DNA of 63,257 bases, the filler included. It is 14 parts of 14 records of this genome, joined end to end, with 100 filler letters (N's around TTAATTAATTAA, not from the genome) between each part and the next. Parts side by side here need not be neighbours in the genome. Positions count along the whole stretch, not along the records: positions 51,607 to 57,133 come from SRR7504441_13837; 13 more parts are not named here. The stretch is one strand, 5' to 3'. The notes below the pieces were generated by a model, which was not told the origin of the DNA, ran no database searches, and was given only the letters and a program-made list of their open reading frames with translations. Every line of letters starts with the position of its first letter. Position 1 is the first letter of the stretch. Of the stretch, positions 7,613 through 63,257 are shown one piece after another. A program made the translations under genes and the position numbers.

Positions 7613-10600
7613 TCAGATTCCATCTCGCTTGATCCCATTGAGCACATTTCGGAGGAACTCGATGTGGGCTGCCTGCATCGATGTCGACGCCATGTTTCCC
7701 TCCGTCTCATCCGGGTGTCCTGTCCAGTGCACGGCACAAGACCTTTCCCCCGTGGCTTCCACGACTATACGTGACCCCCCCGTAAGTGGTACAGCGTCAT
7801 GAAACTGGTATGCAATCACCATGTTCTCCTCATCGAGTTCTTCACAAGACTCCCAGAAAGTGATCTGGCCGTCGTCGCTCTGAATAAAGCGCTTTGCCCC
7901 TAGTCCGTTACCCTCTGTGGTGGTAACATTCATGGAACTGTACCGCGTGATGTAAGGAGCCTTCCAATTCTGCCGCAATCTAATCAAACAAGCCTTGGAG
8001 CTATAACTAAATTAAACAGTAACTAAAGAGGGGTGCGGCCGGGACCTTGATGTAGGACCACATCTGATTTGCAGGGTATGGATAGTCCATCACGTGCTCC
8101 CATCTAGCGGGTCCCAAGGAGGCAGTTGGGTTTGGCTCCCGGGGCGAGCCTGGATCTGGCCCAGCCATGATGACATCGAGCTCCGATGTGATGAATTGCG
8201 TGTACAAGGCCAGCCTCTCGAGAATCGTTCTGCGTCGAGAGTGGATCTCGAGCTCGGGGTTTACATACAGATTGCATTCTTTGAGCTTTACACTACAGTC
8301 AAAAGCGCTTTCCGTATTGCGAAGCCACAGGTTGGACATGGCTTCGATCACTTTTAGACTATCAAGGTCATCAAGTAGCTGCATGTGGTCTGTCTCTACA
8401 TCTATGACTTTGACAATTTTCGATTTCGAAGCCCAGATCGGGTTCGTTCTTTGAGTTCCATCCACATTCAATGTTGCGTTGAAGAAAAGCACACGGGTGC
8501 ACTCACCACTTTCAAGGTTTGGGAAGAATCCGTCCAATTCATTCCACTCATCTGGGAAGCCCATGGTCGGGGCTTCTGTCAAAGAGAGCAACCGCGTGAG
8601 CTCATCAGTCTGATACTCGACAAAGTTCCTCAGTGAAACTGGCATATTGGTAGGCTGTGAACGATGCATCCACTTCCTGATTTCACTTCCTGCATCATGG
8701 ACCTGAAGAAGCAGCTCCGGAACCCCGTGTGCAAGCAAGTAGGGCTCTAGAAGATTCGGAATGTGAACTGGATGAAATGCATCCAAAACAATCACCGAGA
8801 GTACAGGATAGCCATCCTGCTGCAATAGACTTGCAACTCGGACAGCTACCCACCCTCCGTGACTGTAACCACCCAGGTGGACAGGACCTGTTGGCTCAAG
8901 TTGCCGTATTGAATTCTTGTGGTGAACTGCCAATGCTTCCACATCAAGAGAGTCACCCCTTTCCAAACCATACACATATCGAGACTCTTGCAGGCCAGAG
9001 ACGAGATCCGCAAAGGCAGCAGTGGTGCCCATCCCAGCGGCTGCCAGGAACAGCGTGGGTTTCATTTCCTCCGAATGTTCTGGACCTCGCAGAGTCACGC
9101 ACAGATCTGGGAGCGTGCGTTTGATGGCAGATGTGGAGGTAGGTTCTGGGAGGAACTGCTGGTCAGGTGATAGGCTTTGGCTGCCAAGGAAGGTGACAAG
9201 CTGTCCGAGGGTGGGATGGTCTAGGAGCAGGCTGTTTGGTAACTTCGCGTCCAGAGCCTGAAACAGAACCGGTGAGCTATGCAGGACAGGCCCATCATGT
9301 ATTACCTGTGATAACTTCCGAGCTATCGCAATCGCGTCGTTTGAGGTGATGCCATGCTGACTAAACGACGTCGTTTGAGGTGATTTGGTAGCTGCCAAGC
9401 CAAAATTGACGAGACCTGTTTCCCCATCAATGAACGCAATAATCTTGGAAGCAGTACCTGTAGTTGCTTCGATCGTTTTGAGAATCAACTCATCGAGACC
9501 CTTGGTAGAAACTTGCTTCACCTTGCTTGAAAATGGCCGCTTGGACTGTAAGGCAGCTGAACGCTTAGGCTGCCAGGCATCAACCCAATAGTCTCGCCCA
9601 AGGTGGCGCTCTGCTTCGCTATCACGGTGCATTAAAATGTGGATATTGTCTCCACTTGCACTTGTGCCACTTAAGCCAGCGAGATGCTGACACTTCACGT
9701 CCAACTTTGCTGGAAGGTTGACAGGTAGCCATGACATTGGCCAGCTTGTAATGCCTTGTGCTAGTTGTAGTATGTTGCTGTGTGGGGGCACCTCGCAGTG
9801 GGTTAGGTTCAGAATTGCCACCACAACTCCGACAATCCCTGATGCACTGACAGTATGGGCAAAGTTGGCCTGAACCACACAAGACATCAACCAGGCCGAA
9901 CAAGGAGACCACCTTATGACCAGCCAGCACCAGTGGGCGAGGACGAAACTCCAAGAATGCATTTCTCATGGCTTGGATCTCTGGCCGGTCGGAATTTTGG
10001 CTTCCCATGGCTGCAAAGCAAGACACTTATAATTCCAATAGGCTGATCAAACGAAGCACCGTGTAAGTGCACGAAGTCTATCGCTCCAGGATCCACCTGG
10101 GCTTCAGAAAGTGCAGCTGTTGCAGCGAGTTCCATGGCATCCGCATCAGCAAAAGCTGGCGGCAAGAGGGTGCTGGTCTTGTTCGTTGCCCGGCCGACTA
10201 CACTACCATGCATTAAGGTGGAGCTGACTTGCATTGCAATGGCAGCACAGCCCTCTGCAATGCACACACGTCAGTTAGCATGTTGAATGGGTTCCAAGAG
10301 GGCTATATAAAGGCGCTATAAAATACTTACCACCCCAGATCAGTCCGGTGGATGCAGCATCGAGTGGTTGCATGACGCCGGAGTCACTAAAGAGGCGCAT
10401 TTGAAGGGCACCAACAGCGAAATGAGGTTGAAGCATGAGGCTGATACCAGCGGCTATTGCAGTCGAACATGCACCCTTGTGGATGTTTGCTACGGCCTCA
10501 CAGACAGCAAGATATCCTGAGCTGCACACTGCCTCGGTATTTGTGTGCGGGCCGTCCAGCCCTAATATTGACAAAGTAATTCGGGAGACCATGTAAGGTG

Positions 10601-11195
10601 CAAGCTTTACTGCAAAGTCAGTGCATGCTGCTGCCGTAAAAACGCCTATCGTCTCAAGGCCAAGATCAGACTGCAACCCAGCATCAGTGAGCGCTGCTGT
10701 TGCATAGGAAGTGAGATAGTGTATGTGTAGGTCATGTGCTTGATTCACATTATCGCCATTGGATAGGTAGATGTCTTCGAGACAGTCGATGAATGCACCC
10801 ATGAGTAACATGGAAGAAGTGTTCGCTTCTTGCCAGACTTTCTTCCAGCGAGAGGGCGGATTCTCAGTTATATGACACTGCTTTCTGGATAAAGAGGACC
10901 AGAGATTATGCAGCGTGCCTGTATCATTGGCCAACTTATGTGCCAATCCAACGACCCCGATTTTCACTTTTGGTACGGGAGTTGCTCTACCCAGGGCTAT
11001 CGAGATCGCCTTTGCATTTTCCCGTGTGTTGACCGGATCACTCTGCTTCAGTTGGACACACAGAAATTCTGTCAATCTTGCTACAGTTGGATGCTCAAAT
11101 GAAAGAGTGGCTTTGAGTTTCAAAACATCGCCTAGTTCGTGTTGCAGCAGGTTACGCAGCTCGGCGGCTGCTAGAGAGTCCACGCCATTCTCCAT
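7613..11195 (-). CDS. 3' part of a modular type I polyketide synthase: ACP-KS-ACP-thioesterase-SRPBCC (polyketide cyclase-like), 5'-truncated, spliced
   Basis: ACP GVDSLAAAELRN...FEHPTV. KS with EAVCSSG, HLHAMG and HKANFAH (Cys-His-His after intron removal). Second ACP GITS...LDHPTL. TE GGYSHGG/VLDA/DHM. Intron 8045-7970 joins YPANQMWSYIK to NWKAPY...AKRFI...WESCEELDEENMVIAYQF (START/SRPBCC-like). Confidence 0.85.
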
Positions 11196-11340
11196 NNNNN
11201 NNNNNNNNNNNNNNNNNNNNNNNNNNNNNNNNNNNNNNNTTAATTAATTAANNNNNNNNNNNNNNNNNNNNNNNNNNNNNNNNNNNNNNNNNNNNTACGA
11301 GTCTAGTCGACGCCGCATAATTATGTACTGTACAAGTCAT

Positions 11341-19705: not shown

Positions 19706-22645
19706 CTAACGTTCCCCATTGCTCACGTTCTTGTAGTAGCCAACAATTACCTCGCTAAAGGACAGCGCGTCGACACTTTGCTGTCGAAAGCGGGCCTGCA
19801 CTGCCGAGAACCGAGCACTATCTACAAGACCCTCAAGAGAATCCCAACCACGAGCATGTTGGCGCGCCTCTGCGCGAGCTTCTTCACTTCGGATCTCAAC
19901 GTATTCGACGAGAGGCACCCTTGACCCGTTTGCAAGGGAGATCGGATGGCTCCACGGGAGGTTGTGAAAGAAAAGTAGCAGCTCCTGTGGACAGGTGCTA
20001 ATGTTATTGTACATCTCTGCCACAGGTGCTAGATATCTGGAGGCAAAGTTCGTGCCAGTGGAGACGCGATTGCAGCCTAGGCCGTAGGCACTCATATTTT
20101 GGGTGTCATAGTTAGCGCAAGGATCCAAGAAGTAGTGCCAGTGCTGGTGACCGTCTTCGAGCCCCTGGGGATGACCAAAGTATGGGAACTCCAAGTTACT
20201 CTGCAGACAGTCATAGTTACACTGTCGACTGAATGGGCACTGGCTGCCATCAGGCCCAGGCCCAGGGCCCAGCGTCTTAGGTGCACAACCAAAGCCACTG
20301 CCCGGCGCATCATCGGCCGAGTAGGAGCCGCAGCCCGCACACATCCAGCCGATTCCTAGAGGGCTGGTGTATCCCTCATATGTAGTCCACGACTGGTCTA
20401 AGATGTTCACGATCGTATCGACGAGCTTGGCTCGGCCAATTGGCTGTACATGCGGCGACGAGAAAGTCATTGCTGCCCACTCGCGATGAATCTCTGTTGG
20501 GTCCTGCTGCGGGTCCCACGACAAGCGACCACACCCGAAAGCAGAAGAGGCCGCGAATACATGCCCAGTCACATTTCGCCACAGGCCAAAGTTGGATATG
20601 CACGCCATTCCCTTGCCTTTGTACTTGTGGTGCTTTGCGGACAGCACGGATGCAATCGTTGTTCCATTTCTATCAAAGTCAAAGTCAAGATAATGCTTCC
20701 ACTGTGGCGTCAAGGCGACTGCATGTATCTGCTGGCCCGTGTCACAGTTACCGGTGTATGTCTCCATCATCATCTTCGTCTTGGTCAAACCGCCAGCAAG
20801 CAGCGGATGGATCGGGTCCCGAATCAAAAAGTCCATCGGCGTATGCTTAATCTGTACAATTACATTCTCGTCGAACTGTCCATCCAGCGGATGAATGGTG
20901 TCATACTCTTGCTTTGCCTTCTCCTCGTGTGCATTAGAAGTATCGCCGCCATAGATAAAGGCACGCCACAGCACCACCGCGTCATTGATGGGCTTGAGAG
21001 CACGAGCGAGCAGATTGGCTCCTTCGGCTTCGGTCTTGTTGAAGGTCTGTGGCCCCTAGAAGGTCTGACTCAGAATGGCGCTGATAACGGGCAGGCACCT
21101 GGTTGCCTTCACAGTCCGCCTTGACGAGGAATCCTCCAAATGTTGGGAACAAAGATTTAATCTCTAGGGCTTTCGCGGTCCACCAGCGCTCAGCCTCGGG
21201 GTTGTCAGGGTTGGGACTGATGCCCGCAAGCAATCCTGGAGCAGCATAGCAAACTGCACGTGATCAGCGCCGATATTATGTAGGGCACCTGTCCAGTATG
21301 GCTTGATACTGTACTGAAGGAAGAGTTGACCCACATTCTTGGAAATATTCTTTAGCGATTCGCTTTCGAGAGTCATGACGTTGTCGCCCACACACGCGTC
21401 CACATTCAGGATTGCTATGCCGTTGAACCCGACACTCTTAATGCTTCGGAGCATATGAGCAAATCGAGTGCGGTAGGCTCCTGGGCCGTTGGTATCGAAT
21501 GGGTCCAACCCTATTTCAGTCGGCTGAACGCTCTCGACCGAGAGGCACTGGCCTCCATCGGCGGGACTCGAGATCTCGGGCATTGTCCTGATTTGCTGGG
21601 TGGCTTGATCGTAAGCAAACATCTGTTTTCGGATGTAAGCCTCCTCCACAGGGTCGCGGCTGGTTTTAGGAAGTTTACAAGAGCTGAGCTGGATCACTGG
21701 ACCCTCGCCCGATTGCACGTCGATGCACCGCCCGAGACTCCAAGGAGCGCCATGTGGCACCACAGGCTCGCGACTCCATGCCGATATGGTCTGGTTTCGG
21801 TTGAAGCTCCAGCCCGTGCACGCCGACTGATTGCCCGTGGTCTCCATCGGATTTTGGGGAGTTTCGCTGGACAGGCACTCACGGCTGGCAACGTTTGTAA
21901 TACTGACGCGACTGCCAGAGCCCACAGCCGCGACCGCCCACCGCTGCCAGCTGTCTGTGGCGTTGCACGCGCGCAGAAAGACTTTATTCCGAGGCGGCGG
22001 TTTGCCATCAGCGAGTAGAGCATAAGGCCAGAGGATCGACCGGCCGGAGAAGCCCTGTTCTATCGACCCATCGGCGTTATCCCTGTCACAACGGACCACG
22101 CGTCAGCGCATGGCGGGAGAGGCGACTGACCAAAGGTTCCAGACCCGCCGCTCCATGGCGGGCGCACTCTCATAGTCGTGTGGGATCGGTCTGTGCTGCT
22201 GGAGCAACGACAACAGTCGGAAGGTACCGTAAAGCAGCCCCGAGCCGTTGGCCGCCTCGACATGGACCACGCCCGATGCCTGCCGAATCCGGAAGCCCTC
22301 TGCGCCTAGCGTTGCCGAGCCCGAGGCGCCCACCACGCTGGCCACAAGCCTGACCCCCGCAGCAGCGGGCGCCGGAGTGACGGTCGCAGTGTACGCAGTC
22401 CCAAGCAGCCCGCCGAGACCGGTTTCCAGCTCGTCCGCCACTGCTGAAAGCTGCAGCCGGGAGTCGCTGCAGCCTTCCGGAGGACAGACCACGGCGGCCG
22501 AAGAGCCGAGCAGCGACCTGTACGTTGCCAGCTGGCTACCTGACACGAGCGGGTACCGAAGCCACAGCGGATCGAACCCGACCGGTGAGCCGGAGCTTGC
22601 AGCTGCTGCGAGCAGGGTGGCAGCCAAGAGCCCAGAGCCCGGCAT
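19706..22645 (-). CDS. Secreted GH67 alpha-glucuronidase-like protein with an internal ricin-B/CBM13-like insert (spliced)
   Basis: Signal peptide, LWLRY, LGAEGF.I, GLLYG.F.LL, DNADGSIEQGFSGRSI, SVGFNGIAILNV, FGGFLVKADCEG, GANLLARAL, VVLWRAFIY, LDGQFDENVIVQIK..PMDF..RDP, GRLSWDP, CPQELLLFFH. Confidence 0.9.
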
Positions 22646-51298: not shown

Positions 51299-51629
51299 CG
51301 GGACCGCCCGAGTGTAGGCCCGGCTGGTGTAGGCCTGCCCCCAGCTCTCAGCGCACCCTACTCAACGGCTCACCATCGTTACGCAACGCAGCAACGGACT
51401 CGTACAACGGTCACTTCGACACCGGGCCGGAATCCCTTGGAAGATGGAGCTGGGTGGGGACACGCGGACTCCGCTGTTGACCGAGGATTCGGCGGGGGGG
51501 CAACCCNNNNNNNNNNNNNNNNNNNNNNNNNNNNNNNNNNNNNNNNNNNNTTAATTAATTAANNNNNNNNNNNNNNNNNNNNNNNNNNNNNNNNNNNNNN
51601 NNNNNNCTGGGGCTGCAATTGCAATTCCT

Positions 51630-54600
51630 ATGCAAGATGGGCGAGTTGTGAGCAGTCACGATGTGCACAGGCTGTCGGTCTGCTTGCCATGCATATTGGG
51701 ACTACAAAAGCAGGCCATTGCAGGCAGCAAAGGGAAGAATGTTGTGGCGATGCCACCGTCAGCAACAACGTGGGGGGCACGGCTTCGTTGGGAATTTGCT
51801 CTGGTGCAAGCGTTTGGCGTCACCTACCCCAATAAGGAGGTCCAGCGACTTCCTGTGAGTGCCATGCTCTTCGAAGTATTGCACGCAGTGGCAGAGTACA
51901 GGGATAGCCGTGATACAAAGACGCTTCAGGTGTTTAGTTCTCTGTTGGGGGTATACGAGCAGAGGATGGGTACTCTAATCCCGGCGCTGCGTGCAGCCGG
52001 GGATGATTCTGAGAGACCCGAGGACTTTCTGCTGGAGGCCCGGCCCTGCGCAAGCTTATTTTCGTCGTCTTGCTCTCCGAGGTACATTGATCAGCTGATG
52101 CAATTCATGGGCGTCACGCTCTCTGACCCACCATTGTATCACGATACAAAGTGCGTTCTTCAAGATGGTCTGGGAATGCTGCAGCTTCAGACAGTAGGCT
52201 CTCGAGATCGAGCCAGCAGCGAGCTCTTTGGCGAAGGTCACAACGAGCAAGCGGCGCCACCGGAAGAGATGGAGACAGATGCAGAGTGCAATCCAGAACA
52301 CCACGATGCTGATGATGACCAAGCAATGGCGCCCCCGGAGGAGGCCGAGGCTTGTGATCAGGCAGTGTGGGAGGTGCTCTCTTCCGTGTTGGGCTTTCGG
52401 CATTCGTTCCATCCCAGCCATTGCCCATGGGTTCTGTATTCTGCACTGACCCCAATGCTTTTGGATGGGCAAAAAATGACAAGCACCGCTGAGCATGTTC
52501 AGCCGTTCCTCCGCGAGTTGGCAAGAACAGCAGTAGCGGAGAGCAGCGCCGAGATCTGGGCTCACGCTGAGAAAGCGTCTGGCTTTTGGCTTGACGATGG
52601 CTTTGAGCCATTGGATCGATGTGTCTGGGGGTGCTCTGGCGACTCCCCAATCTGGCGTGCTCTACTTGCTATAGGCTGCAGGGCTGGGCCGGTGGTGGCG
52701 CTGGAGCCTGTTCTGCGTGGCATGATCGGGGAGACTTCGTCCTCAGTCCTGTTGCCGCTGGAAAAACGCTGCCTAGCCGGGCTGCCGCATGCAACTGATG
52801 TTGAAATGATGCTGAATGGTACTCTGCCGTGGCTGCTCGAGCTCAGCAGCGTGCCTGGCGACGAAACGGTGCCGCAGCAAGAGTACTGCTGGTCGGAGGA
52901 GATCAAGAGCTGTTACTCAGCAGTGGTCGACACCATTGTGAATGGCGGTTTCCCTCGTGGCAAACGCTTGGAAGTGCCTGTGCTCTCCGCCAACCTGAAC
53001 CTGTGCCATATTGTGGTGGATGGTGGCTTCAACCGGTTACTCACACGTGAGGCAGAGGCGCTCGTTGTGCTACCAGACGCGCATAACTGGCCGGCTTCGA
53101 CTGAACTCGTGTTGGCCCACTTTGGCTCCCGTTGTCTTCATCCATCTCTCGCAAGCCTGTTCTCTCCGATTGCAGAACGACAGAGCGTGAGCCTTGAGTC
53201 CCCCAGAGTCCGCGTCCAGCGCTCCCTGAAGAGCTGTCTGCGGATCGTTGCTACGAACGAACAAAGCACAGACGATGAGATGTGGAGTCTAATCGGCGAG
53301 GTACAGGGCAGGTCCATTTCGCCTGGTGCGTCCGACTTGGACTGGAGCAATCGATGCTCAGATGCTGACAATTGGGATTTGCTTCTGTGGGCAGCCATCA
53401 GGTGCGCTTCTCAATGGCACCGCATGCAGACCACAGGGGCGCCACAAGACGCCAGTCGGTACCAGGAGACGCTCTCACGCACCCGGCGCATGGTGCCCTT
53501 CATCACTGAGACTTCGTACGCAGACCCTGACGGCGAGCCTTGGTCTTTTATCGACATGCAGCCGGTAGGTGGAGCTGTGGTGCTCCTGCGAACTTTATTT
53601 GGCTTCAATCTATGGGGTAACCTCGACGGACTTTCGCTTCGTGGCCACCCCCCAAACTGCACTGCCGATATTCCTACAGGGATCCTCTTTGCTTGTGCCG
53701 CTAACCGCAGGATAGAAGATACCTTCCCTGCCTTTCCCGAGCACGTCGACCGTGAGTTGCTTACTTTGATCTGGGAGTGGTTTCTCCTAGAGGTGGCGGG
53801 AGCTGCGCCGCCTGCCGTGCTTTGGGCGACCTCCCAAGAGCCTGTCGCAAGCTGGGCTCGACCAAGAATTAGAGCCGCTGCTGAGGAGTTGGTGGGTGAA
53901 GATAGCAGCACCAGTTCAATCGAGGCCGCATTGTTGGAATCGGTATTGGCCCACACCCAGATCGAGGTGCTCCTCGAGGATATGGACGCTGCAGATGAGG
54001 CGCGGCGTGCAACGGCGCGGCAGCAGGCCGAGAGGCGCCGTCAGGAGCGGGAGGCAGCCGAGCTGCATCGCAGGCAGGAGGCAGAAGCTCGGGCGCGAGA
54101 TCAGGAGGCCCGGCGTAGCCAACAGGCATCAGCCCGTCAGCAGCGTCAGCGTCGCCAGGTCCAGCTACAACGCGAGCGAGAGGAGCTTGAGGAGCAGCTT
54201 GACGAGCTTGGACTTATCCACCAACAGGCAGCCAGCTCGGATCCGCCTGCAGCCGCCGCCATCCAGCTCGTGGGAGCTCATGCCCGCCGTGTGGTTGCAG
54301 CCAGTGGCAACAGCGAGCCAGTAAGGCAGCACACTGCAGCTCCGATGATGCGCGAGTCCCAGGTGCGGGGCAAGCTCATCCGATTCCTTGCTGGGATGCG
54401 GCATTATGAGCGGCAGCAAGCAGACATCGACAAGCCGCTACCACCAGTGCTTTGTGATTTTATCGCGTGGTCTGGGAATTTCCTGGCTGCGGGCGAGGGC
54501 AGCAGCAGACGAAACAACAGCTCTGGTTTGGTTGAACGTCAAGACGATGTGGCGAGTGTTCACTCGGCAGCGCGGCGCTTTGTGGGGCGAGGCGGCGGTG

Positions 54601-54833
54601 GAAACGATGGGGCTGCTGCAGAGGGGCTAGAGGCGGAGGTTTGCCCTATTTGTCTTCAGGATCTTGCTGATACTTCTGCCTATGAGAATCTCGGAGAGCC
54701 TGTGTGGACGGGCTGCCGCCACAGATTCCACGCTGTATGCTTTGCCCAACACATGGAGAGTAGTCTTCAAGATCCTTGGTGTCCTGTGTGTCGTGGTACA
54801 GACGTTACGATCCGATTCAAGGCTCCCAGCTAG
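51630..54833 (+). CDS. Large protein with C-terminal RING-H2 finger (putative E3 ligase), 5'-truncated, intronless
   Basis: CPICLQDL...CRHRFHAVC.......PWCPVCR, preceded by a coiled coil. Confidence 0.8.
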   Translation: MQDGRVVSSHDVHRLSVCLPCILGLQKQAIAGSKGKNVVAMPPSATTWGARLRWEFALVQAFGVTYPNKEVQRLPVSAMLFEVLHAVAEYRDSRDTKTLQVFSSLLGVYEQRMGTLIPALRAAGDDSERPEDFLLEARPCASLFSSSCSPRYIDQLMQFMGVTLSDPPLYHDTKCVLQDGLGMLQLQTVGSRDRASSELFGEGHNEQAAPPEEMETDAECNPEHHDADDDQAMAPPEEAEACDQAVWEVLSSVLGFRHSFHPSHCPWVLYSALTPMLLDGQKMTSTAEHVQPFLRELARTAVAESSAEIWAHAEKASGFWLDDGFEPLDRCVWGCSGDSPIWRALLAIGCRAGPVVALEPVLRGMIGETSSSVLLPLEKRCLAGLPHATDVEMMLNGTLPWLLELSSVPGDETVPQQEYCWSEEIKSCYSAVVDTIVNGGFPRGKRLEVPVLSANLNLCHIVVDGGFNRLLTREAEALVVLPDAHNWPASTELVLAHFGSRCLHPSLASLFSPIAERQSVSLESPRVRVQRSLKSCLRIVATNEQSTDDEMWSLIGEVQGRSISPGASDLDWSNRCSDADNWDLLLWAAIRCASQWHRMQTTGAPQDASRYQETLSRTRRMVPFITETSYADPDGEPWSFIDMQPVGGAVVLLRTLFGFNLWGNLDGLSLRGHPPNCTADIPTGILFACAANRRIEDTFPAFPEHVDRELLTLIWEWFLLEVAGAAPPAVLWATSQEPVASWARPRIRAAAEELVGEDSSTSSIEAALLESVLAHTQIEVLLEDMDAADEARRATARQQAERRRQEREAAELHRRQEAEARARDQEARRSQQASARQQRQRRQVQLQREREELEEQLDELGLIHQQAASSDPPAAAAIQLVGAHARRVVAASGNSEPVRQHTAAPMMRESQVRGKLIRFLAGMRHYERQQADIDKPLPPVLCDFIAWSGNFLAAGEGSSRRNNSSGLVERQDDVASVHSAARRFVGRGGGGNDGAAAEGLEAEVCPICLQDLADTSAYENLGEPVWTGCRHRFHAVCFAQHMESSLQDPWCPVCRGTDVTIRFKAPS

Positions 54834-54990
54834 CTAGTTTCACCTCTAATATAACGTAAGTACACGTATAGAACTCAACCGCTATTAACACCGTCCTCGT
54901 TAGGATAGTGTTGCATTCCGTACGAGTACCGTACGAGTACTAGCTATTAGTACTACATGTACCGTAGCACTGTGCGGTTAGAATACGACG

Positions 54991-55110
54991 GTATGATCAA
55001 TAATCACGTATACGTATTAATGTAATCACGTCTATTTGCCAAAGCATTTGACACTAGTTTGACACAGAATTGCCACTCACCTGTCTCCACAATCATCATA
55101 CGATATTGAT
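54991..55110 (-). repeat. Degenerate duplicate of the last ~20 codons, stop and 3' UTR start of the PAS-S59 gene (source about 55411-55490)
   Basis: ATCACGTCTATTTGCCAAAGCATTTGACAC is identical at 55025 and 55423 and continues GAATTGCCACTCACC.GTCTCCACA. Confidence 0.9.
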
Positions 55111-55429
55111 CCTATAGACTCTTCGCTTCAAGAGACAGATTTTTTACAGTTTGTTTCATTATTCTTTATTACAAGTACTTGTATCTTATTACAGTACCTC
55201 TCAAACTCAACTATCCACCTCAGTTCGGTGTACTCGTACCAGTCCTCGTAGGGACAGTGAGTGTCAGGCTGTCAGTGTTGCATTAATTTTAGTCCCTAGT
55301 ACTGCGTATTCCATAGTACCGGTACGTATACCGGCCGGCATAGTCACTACCGGCTCAGTCAGGCTAGCAGTGCTAGTACTACAGACTTCGTAGCATTATG
55401 TTGTAATATCGTATGATCGATCATCACGT

Positions 55430-57133
55430 CTATTTGCCAAAGCATTTGACACGGAATTGCCACTCACCAGTCTCCACATCATACGCTATCAAATGTGCCT
55501 TGGCTTTTGCGGTTGCAGTTCGAACTTTTTCTGCAAACCGTTGCTTGTCATCTCGGGTGACGGTTCCAATCCTCTTTGTTGGCACGATATTCTCTAGCGT
55601 AATAACGCACGGTACGTTCAGCCCTTGTCCCCGTGCTGGCTGTTGGTCTCGAGGAGTACCATTCACCTTTCTGTCATAAACAGCCACCTTTCCATGCTCA
55701 ATGGACACATCACGATCGAGGTTTTGGCCATTCAAGTTGACCATGGCCTGGAACTCTAGCATACCATAACCAACTCGCCAAATTTTGAAATTTTCAACAT
55801 AACTGCGCTCATCTGGAGTCATGGACTCGAGCTCAGCAATTGTAGGTAGACAATTGTAACCGCTCTTGGTTAAAACTGGTGCCCGCTCCGAGTTAGCTTC
55901 GGGTCGATGCCGTTGGTTAGAATGGGAATGGTGGCCATCCTCATTAGTTGAGTGGACCTGCAGAGAGTGCGCGACGTCTTGAGCGTGCTGCACTTTGGCC
56001 TCGTCACCGCTCTTCATCGGACTTACATTCATGACCACCTCAAGTTCAGCACCGTCGCTAGTCTGCAGGGTGGACTGCATTACAGACAAGGGGTCGCCTT
56101 TCACTGCCTCACGTAATATATGGCGGGCATCCTTGCGGCATTCTGGCCTCATCAGGGGTCCAACAAGGGGCACTCGGTCCATTCTACTGTGCTCAAAGCC
56201 GAGCGTGTCGGCAGCAAAGTCATTGCAGCCTAAGATTTCACCTCGGTTGTTGGTGACCCATGCCATCACCTCAGTGTCACCAACCAAAGGAGCAACATTT
56301 GCCATATCCATAGTAACAGCACTCATAACAGTCTGGGTTGGCTTGAGGATGACACCAATTACTCTCTTGAACCAGGCCATGCCCTGTGCTTTGGACCACT
56401 TTGGCATAGTATCCACATTTATTCGAGTTACGGCTCCCAAGCTGTTAACAAAAGGAATGCTTGCGCCGTGTGTGCTATGCCCCTGTGATGTCCACTCAAT
56501 CAATTTCTGTACACTCTCCCGCCCGGCTAGAGACACAAGCTGAGCGTCAAAATGCATCCCTATCAAGTCCGCGGGCTTCTTGTATTCAAGCCGACGGCAT
56601 GCTCGGATATTACAATCTACTACAATTGAGGACATGTCAAGCTCCATCCAGACGGAAGAGTAGATAGATGAATCGATTTCACTCGGGGTTACCACCACAG
56701 CAATCACAGACGAGCCCTCGCCATTAGTCCACCTTGGAGCAAAGTCCACATCCATGTGAACAACTTTTCCAGGCTTGGTCAAAAAGGGTGTAGGCACATT
56801 TTTCAAGGTATTCCCTTCCAGAACCGCCTCAAACTCTTTGACTAATTCCACAGTACCCTCAGCAGGAACAACGTCTCTATCAAACTGAAGACCAATCAAT
56901 TGGTCTTGACTGCTGTACTCAAGCTGCGTACAAGCAGCGGAATTACACTCTAGAACTGCGAGCGCAAGGTCGACGACCATCCATGCTGAAAAATCACCTA
57001 AATCATGATCCTCGGCATTCTGAGGATCAAGAATATCTGATACAACTGCAACAGTTGGCTCGCCGTCATTCCAAGGGGTAGCATCATCTGTTGCCAACTT
57101 CCGATCCATCACCACCACCACTCCTGGATCGCC
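55430..57133 (-). CDS. Multi-PAS protein with C-terminal Nup98/Nup145-type autoproteolytic (peptidase S59, Nucleoporin2) domain; 5'-truncated, intronless
   Basis: Three PAS-like repeats (e.g. VDLALAVLECNSAACTQLEYS..QLIG). APD motifs PVLTKSGY...PT..EL..M, VENF.I.R.GYG...F, LD..V.I....V.VY, G.GLN....ITL and YD..TG.W.F.V..F. Confidence 0.85.
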   Translation of the reverse strand, partial: GDPGVVVVMDRKLATDDATPWNDGEPTVAVVSDILDPQNAEDHDLGDFSAWMVVDLALAVLECNSAACTQLEYSSQDQLIGLQFDRDVVPAEGTVELVKEFEAVLEGNTLKNVPTPFLTKPGKVVHMDVDFAPRWTNGEGSSVIAVVVTPSEIDSSIYSSVWMELDMSSIVVDCNIRACRRLEYKKPADLIGMHFDAQLVSLAGRESVQKLIEWTSQGHSTHGASIPFVNSLGAVTRINVDTMPKWSKAQGMAWFKRVIGVILKPTQTVMSAVTMDMANVAPLVGDTEVMAWVTNNRGEILGCNDFAADTLGFEHSRMDRVPLVGPLMRPECRKDARHILREAVKGDPLSVMQSTLQTSDGAELEVVMNVSPMKSGDEAKVQHAQDVAHSLQVHSTNEDGHHSHSNQRHRPEANSERAPVLTKSGYNCLPTIAELESMTPDERSYVENFKIWRVGYGMLEFQAMVNLNGQNLDRDVSIEHGKVAVYDRKVNGTPRDQQPARGQGLNVPCVITLENIVPTKRIGTVTRDDKQRFAEKVRTATAKAKAHLIAYDVETGEWQFRVKCFGK

Positions 57134-57726
57134 NNNNNNNNNNNNNNNNNNNNNNNNNNNNNNNNNNNNNNNNNNNNTTAATTAATTAANNNNNNNNNNN
57201 NNNNNNNNNNNNNNNNNNNNNNNNNNNNNNNNNTGTTTGCGGAAGTAGCGATGTACAGTCAGACATCGAGCGCATTGCAGAGCTCTGGAGTTCTACTGGA
57301 CGTGCAGGCTGGGCAGCTCCGAAAGGTGCATGCGGACCTACTCAAGGAGTGGGTCAGGCTGAAGCGGCTGCACCAGGTGGGCCGGCAGGTCATGGGCGCG
57401 CTCAACCAAGTCGCGTTAGAGCTCAGACATGAAGCGTAGTGCCTTGAAACCATAAAAAATAAATGCACTGCTCTAGCTCCCACAATGCACAGTCGTATAC
57501 CGTACGTACATTTACTAGACATACTAGGCGCAGCTGCAGCTGCTTTTTTTGCGCGTGCCCACTTTTCTGTAGATTTTTACATTTAGGTGTGACCTGGTAC
57601 CTGGTACTTGTAAATACATAGTACTAAAAATACCTCAGTTCGCTCAATACGCGCTTCATGATCAGTGAAAGTTGATGAAACTTGCAGGTTCATTGGGAAG
57701 AACGTGCGGACCTGGACCGGAGGCCG

Positions 57727-60700
57727 ATGCTCGGCACTGTCGCAGTCGCTGCGCTCGTCGCAGTCGCCGCGGCAGCTCCTGTGGAGGATCGTTGGCGCGA
57801 GGCGTCGTCGGTCACGGATCAGTGGGAGCAGATGGCCGACGAGCAGTACGTCACGGGCGTGTTCGACGGGTGGTGCACCAATTGGAAGCAGCGTGGGGAT
57901 AAATCCTTCTTCACCGGAATCACCACGGGCCAATGCTTCAACAAGTGCCGGGCCACCCCAGGATGCTGGCAGGCTGTCGCGGAGGTGGCTGATGCCGATG
58001 GCGCCACCCAGTGCTGGCTGGGAGGCAATCGAATGACACAAAAGCCGACCGGCTGGTCACGGGCAGGCGCCAAGAATCAGTGCCTGGCGGTGGCCGAGGC
58101 GAGTATCACATGCGCCCAGTTTGACGCCACCAACGGACCGACTTGGCAGAACTTCGGGTCTTCCGGCGGATGCTACATGCCTGCCGGCGAGCTGATCCTT
58201 CCGCTGACCGGAAAGAATCAGCTGGCGACTCTGGTGCGGCTGACTGACGGGGCCACTACTGTGCCGATCGCACGCAGTTACGACGGCAACAGATGGGAGT
58301 CGCTCCATTCGGACTTGGTCTTGATGCGGCCTCGGCACGATCCTTTTGGCAACTCGGGCAAGTCCAGAGTGGCCATCCCAGACGACGGACACATATACCA
58401 GCTGCGAGGCAAGGACATGGCTGCAGACCCGCAATATCGGGTACCAAATGCGAAGGTGAAGGCGGCGCGGTTCCTGATGCAGGCAACGTTTGGGCCGACT
58501 CGCAACGAGCTCAAGAGCTTCACGAATCCGTCTGCTTGGATCAAGGCCCAGATGGCGCTGCCTGCAAGCTACGTCCGGACTCGATGGCGCAAACGCATCA
58601 ATCCACGGACATTCACAGATGGCGGGCTGCGTACAGGGGCTGAAGTCGGCCCGTGCGACGTAGGTTCATATTGGAATAAGTACGCCTTCAATAGACGTGA
58701 CCTGTTCAAGGCAATTCAGGTGACCAACCTGAGGAACAACGTCGTTGCATTGACAGTCGAAGGGGTCGTTCGAAGTGAGGTGCCAGCAGCAGATCTGGGG
58801 ACAGTCGCTGCGGGCCAGACTGTATATATTTGCGAGGTGTCAGAACGCCTCGGGGGACGAATCAGGGTGGAACCCGGCAAAGCATGCTCCGGCAATGGAG
58901 CTAACCGGGTGGAATTCAGCAACCCGATCATTACAATTAGCCGGATGGATGCCTCTCGCACACTGCGTTTGACGCAGAGTTCAGGCAGCGTGAAAGCAGT
59001 GGCTAACGATGCAGAGTCTGTGGTGCTCACTCGAATGAGTGGCAGGTGCGGGGTATCCAATATGGGAGGTGTCAGCTTCCTTGTGTTCAGCGCAAATGGG
59101 GCCACCACCACATACCGGCTCGACGCTCGGGTCAAGCTCCTCGAGAACACGCTCGAGGCACCAGGCAGGGAGAAATCGTCTGCTGGCGGTGGGACCTGTC
59201 CTCAAGTGAGGAAAACTTTCATGAATGCGAAGACATGCAAAAGGTCCACAAAGTGCTCGGCGGCTACGTTCACAAGCGCCTCGATTACGCTCAATACAGA
59301 TACACTGCACAAGTGGTATACTAGAAGCAATAAGTTTGTTTACTACACAGACGGGCTGAAGCTCGAAGGAAGGTTCCGAACCTCCCCATGCAAAAGGGGG
59401 GTGGTGTCTCGTTGGATTCCTGTGACAGGAGCCTGCAGTGAGAGCGCATTGGACAGTCGCACCAAAGCTACACTGTTGGAGGCTTTGAGGTGCGACCAGT
59501 CGTGTACAGGCATGTAGTTGATCTTGTTGTGCTTGCAGATCTGCAAATGACCCGAATCCAAACATATGGGATGTGAATGTGCGAGAGGTAAGCCAAGAAG
59601 GGGCCACCTGCAATGAGGGTGCTACAATTGGGGCTGTGGTCAAGCTGGGTGGGACGTGCTGGCAGCACGTGCATCCAAATCTGTACGATGTCTACGATCA
59701 CACCAAATGGGTTGAGGAGTTCGATCCACGGCCATCATATGCGCCAAATCCGGCCGCCAAGATAGCTATCGAGGGTGGGTCCCGACTTCATTGGGACAAT
59801 ATGGCTGATTGGGAACGGAACATCCTGAACGCGGCAAGATTCAATCAGGGCATTCAGCGGCTGGGACGTCTGGGTGACACTTTAGACTTTAAGGACCTGC
59901 CTGCCACGGCACAGACCAAGGAAATGGCAGAACTCGTTGGTGCCACCGGTTCCTCAGCAGATGAATTCTTTGAAGCATGCGGAAGTGCGGGTGAGGCAGG
60001 CAACGACCCCACGCTGGGACATCACTATAGAGTTCTTATTACGTCTAGAAATGCCGCTGAAGAGGAGTTGAGGAGGCATCACTTGGCGTGGAATGGGAAG
60101 CGGATGGCTTGGACGATGAACTCTCTGTATGCAAAGGATCAGCTGCGGCAGCGAATGGCATGGGCGCTCTCGCAGATCTTCGTCATTGCAGACGTAGATA
60201 CTGATACCAAGCTGCTTACCGAATATTGGATTCACTACTATGACATTTTCGTTCAGCACGCTTTTGGAAACTATCGTGATGTGATGCGGGAGGTTGCCTT
60301 CAATCCAGCGATGTCGGACTATCTCACATACAGGGACAATAAAGCCAATGCTGAGTATGCCTCGCGCACGCCTACTTTCCCTGATGAGAACTTTTCTCGT
60401 GAGGTAAAAACTCTGAGTGATAGGCTGTGTGCACTGACTGGGTTGGTTGTAGATCACCCAGCTGTTCAGTGTTGGATTGTACAAGCTTCACATGAATGGG
60501 ACCAAAGTGTTGACATCAGACGGCGAATTCGCACAAACATTCAACACTGATAACATCATGAGCATGGCTAGAGCATGGACAGGATTCTATTCCAGATTTG
60601 GAGAGGGATTTCGTTCAAACCTAGAGAGTTTCAAGGGCTACGTGTCTCCTAATCTCATTGATCCTCTCGAGATCAATCCTCGCGTACGCGACATCTTCCC

Positions 60701-63257
60701 CAAGCATGATCTAGAAGGAAATTTCATCGGGGATGGTTATGCCCTTTGCAATGATCTTCCAGACCGAGCCTTTCTGCGCAAAGGAGCAACGTTCAAGTTC
60801 ACAAGTACTGAACTTTCACAGAACTGGGACTCTCACATCACGTTGTCTACATCATCTCCGCTCTACAAGAAATTGTGTAGTTCACGGGGTGGTAAGTGTT
60901 CATTCCCGAGGGACGTTGTGTTGGATGGCACGCTGCAGTGCCATGGAAATGAGTGCGACGTGGACGAGGTTTCTATGGTGAAGCTGTCTGATGGCACCAA
61001 CACAGTCTACTACATGTGGAAGAGACCACCATGTGTATCATTCACATTCTATGAGGGGGGGCGCCAAGCTGTAATTAGAGACGAAGCTCCGCAGAGCGCG
61101 ATATGTGCCGATCCAAGGAGTGTGGCAGGAGGCTCGACCTGTTGCCATATATACAGCTCAGACCGTATTCAAATGACTTGCGTAGCTTCTTACCGTAAGG
61201 AGATGGTCAAGTGGCAGACTAATGTGGATCGCTGTAACGCTACTGTGCACCAATACGCAGATGTGCAGCAATGCAGCAAGATTTTAGGCGGTGTGACCAA
61301 CTTTGATGACTGCAGGTACAGTAGAGATACTCCCAAGTGGTCTAATGCAACATGCTCTGTCAAGGTTCTGGTCAACGCTCGAGGCTTTGTGAACGTTGTG
61401 CATGACACCTCTCCAACCACTGCTGCCAAACATTTCCAGCCAACCAATGAGGTCAACTTTTACGTGCCGTGGAAAGGAGGAGCTTATCCGCGGATCAACG
61501 GCAACTCTTGTGCTGGCGACTCCTGCACCTTGTACGGAGCAGATTCGTGCCTTTGTGGGGCAACAGTGAGCGAGCAGGCAGTATTCTCAGTGACAAGCAT
61601 GCCGAGCAGTAGCGCCGAGGTGCTCGATAAACTAAAGGTCAAACCGCCCGGTCCGAGCTCTAAACTCATCTACTGCTCTGGTCTCAGGTGGGTGCACCGC
61701 CCCTTGAGATGCTTGATGGAGACGAGGCTTACAAAATATGTAGAACCAACACTTGCCGTGGGATTGAGGGTGTCACGGTGCCGAGTCTTTGTGGCTCATT
61801 CTCATCCTCTGATCTCAGGTGTACACAAGGCGAGAATCAGCGGGGACTATCGACACCTCTACAATCTTCCATGTAGAATTGCACGGTGCTTCTCATTACC
61901 GCCGCAATATGGCGTCAACAGTGTCAGTCGGTGCGCACTCGTTCCGTAACCCAGTGCAGTTTATGCCACCACACCGACCTATCGACCTCCCATCTTCTGT
62001 GCAAGACGCGGAATACGAGACTGAAGCTCTGCTTGATCACCTTTTTTACCATGACAACACGGCACCCTTTGTCTCTCACTTGCTTATCCAGCGACTTGTT
62101 ACTTCGAATCCATCACCACGATATGTTGAGACCGTGGCTACTGCGTTCCGAACAGGAAAGTACGGCGGACATGGATCTCGGAGATATGGAGATCTCGGAG
62201 CGACTGTGGCCGCAATTCTATTGGATCAAGAGGCACGATCAGCGGTCTTAGATCTCGACCCTGCTTGGGGGAGAATGCACGAACCCATCCTAAAAGTACT
62301 CCACCTGTTGCGATCCATGGAAGTGAACACAAAGGGCAACGAGATGGAGTTGTTTGATATGGCCCAGTTGATTGGCCAAATGCCTTTCTCCTCTCCCAGT
62401 GTCTTTAACTTCTATCTGCCCGACTATCAGCCAGCTGGCGCTGTCAATGCTGCTGGACTCTATGCACCCGAGGCACAACTGGGTACCGCTCCATTTGTTG
62501 TAGGCTTCCTGAATGGGGTAGCCTCTCTGGTCAATAATGGGCTCTCGAATTGCAGGAACGGATTTGGAAGCCCTTGGCTTGATGACGGGTCGGTAAAATA
62601 TGGAGGAGACTACTCTTGCAGAGGTTATGATCTTGTAGGGTCCACTCATGCCTGGCTCACCTACGTGCCAGAGGCCACAAGAGCACCTGATGTGGTGGCT
62701 GAACTGGCGACACTCCTCACTGGACGCCATCTGAGCTCGCACTCCGCAAGTCTACTAACGCAGATTTATGAAGATTCAGCCAAGAAAACGCCTGACATAG
62801 ATCCCAAAAATGGAGTGGTGACGCCTGGTTGCTATTATCGCACTCCTGCTGGCTGTCACTTGAAAGATATCGTCTATGCTCCGACTTTTTTCCTCCCAGA
62901 CACGCAGTCTACGAACGTCACCTTTATGCAGAACGAGCAGGCGTGTTTGGTGGATCGCAAGCTGGAGCTGAATAATCTATGCCGACGGCAAAATGTCGAG
63001 ACCAAATTTGTTCCAGATGACGGCCTCAGAAAGGTGCCTCGTACCCCCCCCCACACACACACAAGCCATACTCTGACTATTCTTTTGTCCAGGTATTGAG
63101 GTTACTGATGGCATCACCTGAGTTCCACGCCACAAACTACCACACACCAACTGCTGATGATCGCACAGCAATACCAGCTGAGGCTGGGAGGGGTCGCAAG
63201 AGGAAGGCGGTGGTAGTGCTTTTTATGAATGGCGGAGCTGATTCTTTCAACCTTCTT
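57727..63257 (+). CDS. Large secreted DUF1800-DUF1501 fusion protein with N-terminal PAN/apple-like Cys domain; spliced, 3'-truncated
   Basis: AARFLMQATFGPT, DQLRQRMAWALSQIFV, AFGNYRDVM.EV...P.M..YL, PDENFSRE, APFVS..LIQRLVTSNPSP.YV, EP.LK, PSVFNFY.P and LMASPEF (DUF1800). Then in frame KAVVVLFMNGGADSFNLL (DUF1501 start) after intron about 63033-63091. Confidence 0.9.

Follow-up and report, generated by a model that had tools for sequence, protein, structure and literature searches.

A transcribed multi-PAS gene of an uncultured marine eukaryote ends in a Nup98-type domain with a degenerate cleavage motif

To our knowledge and in the literature searched, the Nup98-type autoproteolytic and pore-targeting domain (APD; Peptidase S59, PF04096) occurs almost only as the tail of FG nucleoporins, and we know of no APD of studied function that is not part of a pore protein. 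Its described forms include the domains of human Nup98 and of yeast and Chaetomium Nup145N (1ko6, 2q5x, 3kep, 5hb6), as well as the C-terminal domains of the yeast GLFG nucleoporins Nup116 and Nup100, which have the APD fold, do not cut and serve as anchors only. Here we describe a gene for a multi-PAS protein that carries the APD at its C-terminus, in a form that retains the core of the domain but has lost catalytic residues. This architecture was not recognized from described proteins in the first-pass annotation, and we likewise found no description of a PAS array joined to an S59/Nup98 APD in the literature searched on this and on odd S59 architectures.

The fold of the new APD is that of the Nup98/Nup145N domains (TMt 0.75-0.86), with which it has the LN motif, the Phe of HF, most core residues and the C-terminal position in common. 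It differs from them in having Gly for the Ser at +1, Cys for the His and Gln for the Lys of KP..G.LN, in lacking a Nup96 part and, as far as the contig reaches, in being preceded by PAS rather than FG repeats. The pore-targeting domains of Nup116 and Nup100 (3nf5, 3pbp, 2aiv) are structural matches to its model at Foldseek ranks 19-22, but in sequence it is closer to the cleaving forms than to this type (3nf5, E 7.5e-4), and no FG region is seen in the part of the gene at hand. Stand-alone Nup98-like genes (P0009, P0013, P0008/P0158) also end at or just past the Phe without a Nup96 part, but have low-complexity sequence or GLEBS upstream instead of PAS and do not group with the new APD in the tree. 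Non-canonical use of the domain is likewise seen in the tandem-APD proteins (dinoflagellate P0052, P0137; P0082, P0054), several of which have degenerate motifs (NFG in P0082), although these carry two APDs and no PAS and fall in separate clades. Long rows of PAS repeats are otherwise found in PAS-array hybrid histidine kinases (P0002 of Paulinella micropora, with 32 PAS stretches; P0003; P0119). These are the best matches to the PAS part, with E-values of 1.8e-47 and 2.8e-41 that stem from many repeats, but at an identity of 21-23%, and their arrays lead into HisKA, HATPase, receiver and sometimes Hpt domains, whereas the array described here ends in an APD.

The truncated frame and its PAS repeats

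The window, by which we mean the whole stretch of 63,257 nucleotides analysed, filler included, consists of 14 contigs joined by 13 linkers of the form N44-TTAATTAATTAA-N44, and joining contigs in this way can make truncated genes appear complete. The gene is encoded by a minus-strand frame (55430-57133) of 567 open codons, which runs without a stop into the linker at the end of its contig. On re-examination, the frame, the motifs and the coordinates were all as first described. The features of the locus are:

51607-57133: gene-bearing contig, 5527 bases
57134..57233, no strand: artificial joint N44-TTAATTAATTAA-N44, directly upstream of the open frame
57011..57133, minus strand: last strands of another PAS repeat further upstream, interrupted where the contig ends
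56687..56986, minus strand: PAS1
56336..56656, minus strand: PAS2, a divergent repeat of the PAS1 type, 34% identical to PAS1
56000..56269, minus strand: PAS3, a second repeat type (starts ...VMAWVT..G)
55865..55999, minus strand: linker between PAS3 and the APD, pLDDT below 50, with the His-rich run HHSHSNQRHR at 55904-55933
55436..55864, minus strand: APD, identified by Pfam, structure search and model
55430..55444, minus strand: C-F-G-K-stop, aligned in place of the canonical cleavage site H-F↓S-(K/R)
55025..55091, minus strand: duplicated 3' end of the gene in degenerate form (its last 56 bases: CDS end, stop codon and 7 bases past it), lying in the spacer 387-398 bases further downstream

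The first 41 residues of the frame resemble the last strands of PAS1, with residues 3-41 aligning at a score of 45 that is reached by 4 of 2000 shuffles. Because this PAS1-like remnant lies in a frame that stays open to the last base of the contig, the gene lacks its N-terminus, being truncated at the 5' end within a fourth PAS repeat. The original count of three PAS repeats must thus be raised to at least four. The accompanying remark that no FG repeats are visible carries no weight as evidence, since the frame leaves the contig without its N-terminus; the missing part could change the picture, for example by contributing FG repeats, a kinase or a membrane anchor.

In the Pfam scan of the whole frame (as a 563-aa ORF), PAS_4 (44.3 bits), PAS (41.2 bits) and PAS_9 (37.8 bits) exceed their cut-offs of 23.1, 22.6 and 27 on two to three stretches, with PAS_4 and PAS_9 each reporting three. 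Scanned alone, PAS1 passes with PAS_4 (27.1 bits against 23.1) and PAS3 narrowly with PAS (23.3 bits against 22.6), whereas PAS2 alone gives no match at E<=1; matches to the PAS fold (a five-stranded sheet flanked by helices) and to the PAS clan together identify the array as PAS domains. An AlphaFold2 model of PAS1, run alone, has a pLDDT of 82.7 and a pTM of 0.73, and the structure ranked closest to it by Foldseek is 5iu1_A (TMt 0.88, rmsd 1.4 A), the matches listed being PAS/LOV domains, of which the LOV domains are just 13-17% identical. PAS3 can be aligned to repeats of its own type in P0037, P0039 and P0114. A BLASTP comparison of the frame with itself returned the identity match only, and the repeats are evident by alignment instead. 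In the AlphaFold2 model of the whole frame, for which the alignment was shallow, the PAS part stays below a pLDDT of 50; a sequence search of the PAS part against solved structures gave 0 matches at E<=0.01, and the ESM Atlas returned only bacterial single-PAS clusters (0.92-0.93). LOV domains are marked by a flavin-binding Cys motif, which was not seen when the translated frame was read by eye, and the PAS repeats yielded no cofactor signature; they may bind other ligands.

As to the source organism, a calpain encoded on a different contig of the window is matched best, at 49-55% identity, by a metagenome protein and an MMETSP transcript, and a search for the dinoflagellate spliced-leader motif gave 0 matches.

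A Nup98-type domain with a degenerate cleavage motif

The PF04096 profile (Nucleoporin2) matches the frame at E 3e-29 and 102.5 bits, against a cut-off of 28.4, over profile positions 2-144 of 148. A sequence search of solved structures gave 22 distinct chains at E<=0.01, 20 of which are Nup98, Nup145/145N or Nup116 (best 9hcj_U0, 1.2e-18), while the remaining two are designed SAKe proteins (E 0.005-0.008). The APD was modelled with block-mean pLDDT values of 89-98 (AlphaFold2, about residues 421-567), and Foldseek found 22 matches to the model at E<=0.001, including 1ko6_C (TMt 0.86, rmsd 2.3 A); among the matches listed, all are Nup98, Nup145N or Nup116 domains. With the APD fold and a PF04096 score over the curated cut-off, the domain belongs to Peptidase S59. 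The initial description of a single frame that combines PAS folds with a His-rich linker and a whole S59 domain is borne out, and the profile search proposed along with it found both PF04096 and the PAS models above their cut-offs in that frame.

At the 57 conserved APD columns, the window sequence is identical in 41 and similar in 49. Four changes at otherwise conserved columns (L443R, R468N, A509C and G545K) are common to the window and its relative P0152, and the residue after LN, which is R or K in 125 of 147 other APDs, is V in the window. In the APD tree, the window and P0152 share a long stem of 1.24 changes per column within an unresolved polytomy, a pattern that would fit a changed function. 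Among canonical APDs with a named source, those of diatoms are nearest (38-40% identity), but the tree does not place the window APD among them.

The end of the gene, ...FRVKCFGK-stop, aligns to the human ...FKVSHF-A/S-K. Counted over the same 147 other APDs, the His column has H in 119 and the Phe column F in 133, and the window has C in the former and keeps F in the latter. At +1, S is found in 104 and T in two, 28 sequences end before this position, and both the window and P0152 have G. In place of an H-F↓S/T site with a Ser or Thr nucleophile at +1, the window thus has C-F-G and P0152 has H-F-G. The Asn of KP..G.LN, present in 147 of 147, is kept, whereas the Lys (K in 123) is replaced by Q, and QP instead of KP is also found in all four relatives that cover the site (P0152, P0004, P0154 and P0007). 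The alignment confirms the degenerate catalytic motif of the first-pass annotation, together with both of its substitutions, His to Cys and Ser to Gly. However, the His to Cys change is private to the window copy: P0152 ends in HFGK, and the only other matches with Cys for His are P0008/P0158, which end in ACF. What the relatives share is instead the Lys to Gln change and, in P0152, the only one extending to the C-terminus, the Ser to Gly change.

A preprint on Entamoeba names matching Lys, Asn, His and Phe residues and an HFS/T motif as the residues of the autoproteolytic mechanism. With the nucleophile, the Lys and the His all lost, we infer from the known mechanism that the window APD would be unable to cut itself. 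A stop codon follows two residues past the Phe, all three frames of the 596-base spacer beyond it are full of stops, and the next gene downstream is a convergent RING-finger gene; no Nup96/Nup145C moiety was found beyond the cleavage site. The degenerate copy in the spacer consists of direct repeats, D2 (88%) and D3 (94%), which match 55423-55478, and its frame is broken by an 11-base spacing difference between the pieces.

Recurrence of the PAS-APD junction

Several further contigs match the locus: X2, from an RNA library, covers 55785-56164 with 7 differences, X1 covers 56004-56337, and X3, from a polyA library, covers 55425-55848, with no joints or indels reported for any of the three. The stretches 54834-55424, 56338-56504 and 56666-57097 lie outside such cover. 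The junction itself is bridged by separate contigs from an RNA library and a DNA run, and X2 spans the interval 55880-56000, at which a check of continuity had been advised. Three other distinct marine sequences, 43-63% identical to the window, have the same junction. These are P0152 (191 aa, source label 'merc'), which comprises the end of PAS3, a His-rich linker with a five-His run at the matching position and the whole APD at 60-63% identity; P0040/P0153, in which this junction is also present; and P0045, with a whole PAS, the linker and the start of the APD. A word-index search with the whole frame and with residues 368-567 gave no match at E<=0.001 among proteins of 311-993 aa, longer and shorter proteins being covered by an exhaustive search, and scans of metagenome contigs with the protein and with a 3-row family alignment gave pattern matches but no relative.

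These observations bear directly on whether the gene could be a chimeric metagenome contig, or a decaying Nup98-tail pseudogene joined to an unrelated PAS gene. The contig is only 5527 bases long in a fragmentary assembly, the catalytic residues are lost, and the degenerate copy of the 3' end about 390 bases downstream indicates that local duplication has occurred. Against an artefact stand the bridging contigs, the recurrence of the junction in the three other sequences, the 567 open codons with intact and confidently folding domains, and the conserved APD columns kept by the window. We consider an artefact extremely improbable and largely refuted already: the PAS-APD gene is no chimera, RNA libraries contain it and its architecture is recurrent.

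Possible docking at the nuclear pore

We favor the hypothesis, to which we give an even chance, that this real, transcribed and 5'-truncated multi-PAS gene of an uncultured marine eukaryote uses its APD as a non-cleaving docking module, most plausibly at the nuclear pore. The visible part encodes the tail of a PAS repeat, three further PAS domains, a disordered His-rich linker and the C-terminal APD, which keeps the fold and most of the conserved core residues. This APD would not cleave itself and would act as a passive docking module, like the non-cleaving domains of yeast Nup116 and Nup100. Since no Nup96-like tail follows, the groove to which that tail binds in canonical proteins would not be filled in cis. 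By way of the APD, the multi-PAS part may be held to a partner with a peptide resembling the Nup96 N-terminus or the Nup88/Nup82 loop, the nuclear pore being the most plausible site, and the PAS array could supply ligand sensing or protein-protein contacts there.

In a preprint by Bley et al., docking of the APD at the pore is described as involving a K/R loop and a hydrophobic groove that takes the FGL loop of NUP88. By eye, the K/R loop varies among the few homologues listed. Modelling of the complex with a Nup96 N-terminus had been recommended at the outset, and it was run for the window APD with residues 913-960 of the diatom Nup98-96 protein P0012. The outcome, a score of 0.39 against 0.02 for the best of three controls, was rated 'weak support', and lies in a band in which a pass is wrong more often than not if the guess was not already a likely one; the partner, moreover, is that of another organism. 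In the calibration of the score, 5 of 78 solved complexes reached the mark at or below 0.60, as did all 4 passing mismatched pairs (of 180). At least 62% of contacts are common to the runs and the partner has a pLDDT of at least 41, but like complexes have already been solved, so that the pass may stem from this likeness. We infer that the APD probably docks at the nuclear pore.

Alternatively, the domain may have left the pore context and now mediate peptide binding or oligomerisation more generally, within a multi-PAS signalling scaffold of the cytoplasm or nucleus. Such a role would fit the long stem and unresolved position in the APD tree, the substitutions at conserved columns that are common to the window and P0152, and the existence of other non-canonical APD architectures, such as the tandem APDs of dinoflagellate P0052 (Effrenium voratum) and P0137 and the two NFG-type APDs of P0082. 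We nevertheless think it somewhat unlikely, considering how well the core and the LN motif are kept and that the one binding model points weakly to a fit of the canonical Nup96 N-terminus. It is more improbable still that the frame is the C-terminal part of a true FG nucleoporin, that is, a Nup98 paralogue with FG/GLFG repeats (and perhaps GLEBS) upstream and a PAS array inserted before a non-cleaving APD. As the contig ends in the middle of a PAS repeat, there is more protein upstream; moreover, canonical APDs follow FG repeats, as in P0157 (GLFG repeats) and P0009 (GLEBS), and many of the matches are stand-alone Nup98-like genes ending at HF. Yet, with the N-terminus beyond the contig end, neither an FG-rich stretch (runs of at least five FG motifs) nor GLEBS was found in the 567 residues, in any frame of the window in the case of FG or elsewhere in the window in the case of GLEBS. 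In P0045, which among the relatives reaches furthest upstream of the APD, a PAS repeat is preceded or followed by the beginning of a further repeat rather than by FG, and the proteins that match the PAS part best are PAS-array proteins in which no FG is annotated.

Under the favored hypothesis of docking at the pore, the protein could be the ligand-, redox- or light-regulated pore module that was suggested from the sequence at the outset. In its most specific form, to which we assign a small chance, a family of proteins of marine protists would place a PAS sensor array at the pore by means of a decoy Nup98 APD, uncut and without a tail, which would vie with Nup98 itself for binding to the Nup96 N-terminus or at the Nup88/Nup82 site. 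Ligand, redox or light signals perceived by the PAS repeats, with the His-rich linker perhaps binding metal, could then directly alter the composition of the pore or the transport through it.

If the APD docks elsewhere, the gene would point to a reuse of this domain as a general binding module in eukaryotes. If it still docks at the pore, it would represent a rare example in which a protein of sensor type is anchored at the nuclear pore complex, and a natural decoy with which the contacts between Nup98 and Nup96 and between Nup98 and Nup88 could be probed.

Domains and setting of the PAS-APD frame

The window consists of 14 contigs, each about 3-6.5 kb long, set apart by 13 N44-TTAATTAATTAA-N44 linkers, and open reading frames (ORFs) that abut a linker, including the PAS-APD frame, have an end that reflects the assembly rather than biology. 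This frame, with PAS repeats, a His-rich linker and a C-terminal Nup98-type autoproteolytic domain (APD), sits on the contig at 51607-57133, which holds two convergent genes separated by a spacer of 596 bases.

Features of the contig at 51607-57133
51630-54833, plus strand: RING-finger protein of 1067 aa, convergent neighbour of the PAS-APD gene
55025-55091: copy of the last 56 bases of the PAS-APD gene (55423-55478: coding end, stop codon and 7 bases beyond), 88-94% identity
55430-57133, minus strand: PAS-APD open reading frame
55904-55933, minus strand: His-rich run, in the linker between PAS3 and the APD

The translation reads as the first-pass annotation described it, and both of the domain types that it named were recovered with Pfam profiles. 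PF04096 (Nup98-96 autopeptidase S59) matched residues 420-562 of the 563-aa ORF at 102.5 bits (cut-off 28.4, E 3e-29), spanning profile positions 2-144 of 148, and four PAS-clan models scored above their own cut-offs. A sequence search of solved structures gave 22 distinct chains at E<=0.01, 20 of which were Nup98, Nup145/145N or Nup116 (best E 1.2e-18), the remaining two being designed SAKe proteins (E 0.005-0.008). The AlphaFold2 model of the whole frame had block-mean pLDDT values of 89-98 across about residues 421-567, and all listed Foldseek matches (22 at E<=0.001) were Nup98, Nup145N or Nup116 domains, with 1ko6_C at the top (TMt 0.86, rmsd 2.3 A).

Scanned by itself, PAS1 exceeded its Pfam cut-off (PAS_4, 27.1 vs 23.1) and PAS3 did so narrowly (PAS, 23.3 vs 22.6); PAS2, which is 34% identical to PAS1, had no Pfam match at E<=1. 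The PAS1 model, built from a 9-row alignment, showed the usual strand-helix-strand order (pLDDT 82.7, pTM 0.73) and was most similar to 5iu1_A, a PAS domain from a MAP3K of a moss (TMt 0.88, rmsd 1.4 A); PAS or LOV domains made up the further listed matches. All three PAS repeats of the first-pass annotation are present, with the remnant of a fourth at the contig end, where the first 41 residues align to the last PAS1 strands with a score of 45, equalled by 4 of 2000 shuffles. Since these residues match PAS1 and the frame is free of stop codons from the first PAS repeat to the linker at 57134, the contig ends within a fourth PAS repeat, with the N-terminus lying off the contig. A GTG listed as the start was rejected, since the ORF lister assigns starts mechanically. 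The earlier remark that no FG repeats are visible carries no evidential weight, because the frame leaves the contig before its N-terminus. No FG-rich frame was found anywhere in the window, nor was a second copy of the PAS part or the APD in tblastn searches of it. The last 36 bases ahead of the contig end (57098-57133) are a GGTGGTGGTG-type stretch, covered by many short, high-depth contigs from the DNA run X4 (depths 40 and 27); four records noted alongside extend past the ends of the compared stretch. A repeat at this place may have caused the assembly break.

At the other end of the gene, stop codons abound in each of the three spacer frames, so no Nup96 part follows the APD. The copy of the gene's end lies 387-398 bases downstream, in the spacer, with an 11-base spacing difference, and may be what remains of a duplicated tail or of an adjacent gene copy. 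A contig from the polyA RNA library X3 ends at 55425, near the edge of this repeat.

The remaining contigs carry eukaryote-type genes for a calpain, a Sec23/24 zinc finger, a MYND finger, GH59, GH67 and polyketide-synthase pieces. The GH67 alpha-glucuronidase is divided between two adjoining minus-strand ORFs (19709-22102), probably separated by an intron or a frameshift, and the upstream ORF has a weak ricin-B lectin match. The polyketide-synthase pieces lie together on one contig (8007-11243):

8007-9965: thioesterase ORF
10278-11243: PP-binding and ketoacyl-synthase ORF, reaching into the linker

On the contig at 57234-63257, four long ORFs follow each other end to end on one strand (57682-63099), two of which bear the N- and C-terminal halves of DUF1800, a mostly bacterial family (59522-60547 and 61813-63099). 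They may represent a single gene disrupted by frameshifts or introns, or else sequence of bacterial type within the bin.

The fusion in sequencing libraries and relatives

Parts of the stretch were found in 20 of the 24 listed public runs, 14 of these recorded as RNA; all were marine, seawater or aquatic metagenomes or metatranscriptomes, with small shares each. Four runs were compared along the stretch. A 383-base contig from the RNA library X2 corresponds to 55785-56164 with 7 differences and spans PAS3, the linker and the APD, and a 327-base contig from X4 corresponds to 55859-56182, while the cover was 56004-56337 in the RNA library X1 and 55425-55848 in X3. Continuity across 55880-56000, for which the first-pass annotation had sought read or transcript evidence, is borne out by the X2 and X4 contigs, which run through the PAS3-APD junction, and no joints or indels were reported across the contig cover of the four runs. 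These assembled contigs are a record of presence and not of expression level, and DNA carry-over into RNA libraries is possible. The PAS-APD fusion is genuine, and RNA libraries contain it.

Of 1.84 billion representatives searched exhaustively, 1707 matched at E<=0.001. Among the 150 matches listed, 11 matched best in the PAS part and the others in the linker or APD part. The cluster member P0152 (191 aa) contains the last PAS3 strand, a linker with five consecutive His and the whole APD, with an alignment-dependent identity of 60-63% to the window protein. P0040 and P0153 have the PAS3 end, the linker and the APD start as in the window (54-56% identity), and P0045 (235 aa) has a complete PAS2-type PAS, the linker and approximately the first 45 APD residues (32.9 bits), followed by unrelated sequence. 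P0154 and P0007 cover the middle portion of a similar APD; P0154 and P0045 are each recorded on a contig 3291 bases long, which would be compatible with a single gene interrupted by an intron. PF04096 was found in none of the 11 PAS-type matches scanned with Pfam, the full-length ones being PAS-array hybrid histidine kinases, and no long protein with both parts was among the 150 matches listed. The PAS-APD family so far consists of fragments only.

Catalytic site and ancestry of the Nup98-type domain

HMMER pairs the terminal FRVKCFGK-stop of the frame with FKVSHF-A/S-K in the human protein. The window APD was compared with 147 others taken from the matches and their cluster members, a set picked by likeness to the query and not unbiased.

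Residues at key APD columns in the 147 other domains and in the window
His of the cleavage site: H in 119, C in 2 (P0008/P0158); window C
Phe of the cleavage site: F in 133; window F
Position +1: S in 104, T in 2, G in 3 (P0152 and both P0082 domains), 28 sequences ending earlier; window G
Lys of KP..G.LN: K in 123, Q in 2; window Q
Asn of KP..G.LN: N in 147; window N
Residue following LN: R or K in 125; window V

A glycine at +1 is unable to initiate the N-O acyl shift. Among the relatives only P0152 surely extends to the C-terminus; it ends in HFGK, and the loss of the nucleophile is thus common to the sole relative that covers the site. Of the two changes behind the dead motif proposed in the first-pass annotation, serine to glycine was confirmed, and so was the replacement of His by Cys, which is private to the window copy. 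QP occupies the Lys site in all four relatives that cover it (P0152, P0004, P0154 and P0007). A 2026 Entamoeba preprint assigns the autoproteolytic mechanism to the HFS/T motif and to the counterparts of these Lys, Asn, His and Phe residues. Outside the catalytic sites the APD is well kept: at 57 core columns, each with at least 60% agreement among the other APDs, 41 residues are identical and 49 similar. The window and P0152 share the changes L443R, R468N, K498Q, A509C, G545K and S566G. The only other Cys-for-His APD among the matches, P0008/P0158 (427 aa), has a Nup98-like tail ending in RVACF and is 43% identical to the window APD, yet stands apart from it in the tree.

A quick maximum-likelihood tree was built from 146 APDs. 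In it, P0152 and the window form a fully supported pair, whose long stem (1.24) attaches to an unresolved polytomy of 112 rows. Of the named canonical APDs, those of diatom Nup98-96 precursors (Thalassiosira minuscula, Pseudo-nitzschia pungens and a Bacillariaceae MAG) come nearest, at 38-40% identity. The tree did not place the window APD among these; the domain is thus a divergent paralogue and not the ordinary Nup98 tail of the organism. Tandem pairs of APDs occur in P0052 (from the dinoflagellate Effrenium voratum), P0137, P0054 and P0082, several with degenerate cleavage motifs (NFG twice in P0082); they are another little-described group of non-canonical APD architectures.

A putative docking module and its alternatives

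The window protein has the fold of the S59 family and fails to match its cleavage features, and is a non-catalytic S59 relative. With an intact fold, changes at three sites named in the mechanism and no Nup96 part, the domain would not be expected to cut, and the groove for the post-cleavage N-terminus of Nup96 would have no occupant in cis. The APD of model organisms is a pore-targeting module, and the non-cutting copies in yeast Nup116 and Nup100 serve as anchors. The simplest reading is therefore that of a docking module, through which the multi-PAS protein may be tethered to a Nup96-like or Nup88-like site. The domain is nearest in logic to Nup116 and Nup100, and unlike the Nup98-Nup96 precursor, which it is not. 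According to Bley et al., the human NUP98 APD contacts the NUP88 propeller by a K/R loop and receives the NUP88 FGL loop in a hydrophobic groove. A complex model of the window APD with residues 913-960 of the diatom Nup98-96 precursor P0012, just past HF|S, reached a score of 0.39, the best of three controls standing at 0.02 (contact agreement between runs at least 62%, partner pLDDT at least 41), a score to be read with the facts that the peptide is not from the window's own organism, that solved complexes of this kind exist, so that the pass may reflect memory, and that passes at 0.60 or under came from 5 of 78 solved complexes and from every one of the 4 pairs that passed among 180 mismatched ones. 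The model lends weak support to docking to the Nup96 N-terminus, raising the odds only slightly.

As to a signal that the PAS repeats may sense, no LOV-type motif was seen when the translation was read by eye, and the PAS part had no match to solved structures by sequence (E<=0.01). Many eukaryotic PAS repeats serve protein contacts only. The His-rich linker is common to the window and P0152, a hint, though a speculative one, of a role such as metal binding.

The main competitor to docking at the pore, an APD reused elsewhere in the cell, seems rather unlikely to us, although the long stem in the tree, the substitutions shared with P0152 at conserved columns and the other odd architectures, such as the tandem APDs in the dinoflagellate P0052 and P0137 and the NFG-type pair in P0082, all point in its direction. 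We consider it still less probable that the protein is a true FG nucleoporin with its FG part past the contig end, given that the sequence upstream in the relative P0045 is PAS and not FG. A chimera or a pseudogene is very improbable, as contigs bridge the PAS3-linker-APD junction, an equal junction occurs in three other sequences and the domains are intact.

Full-text literature searches on PAS together with Nup98, an APD or a nucleoporin gave no description of this architecture among the papers listed, judged by titles and abstracts, in line with the first-pass annotation, to which it was not known from described proteins. Nor did it appear among the papers listed by searches on odd S59 architectures, autoprocessing and protist paralogues, judged in the same manner, and PAS is not mentioned in the passages seen of Bley et al. 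and the Entamoeba preprint. Co-occurrences of the terms, as far as the abstracts and titles tell, concerned plant Nup96 and phytochrome B, or unrelated contexts. To judge from these literature searches, the architecture is not in print. The case is fragmentary and its functional steps are all inferred. The PAS-APD architecture is nevertheless real and unusual, and it provides a testable hypothesis about the nuclear pore.
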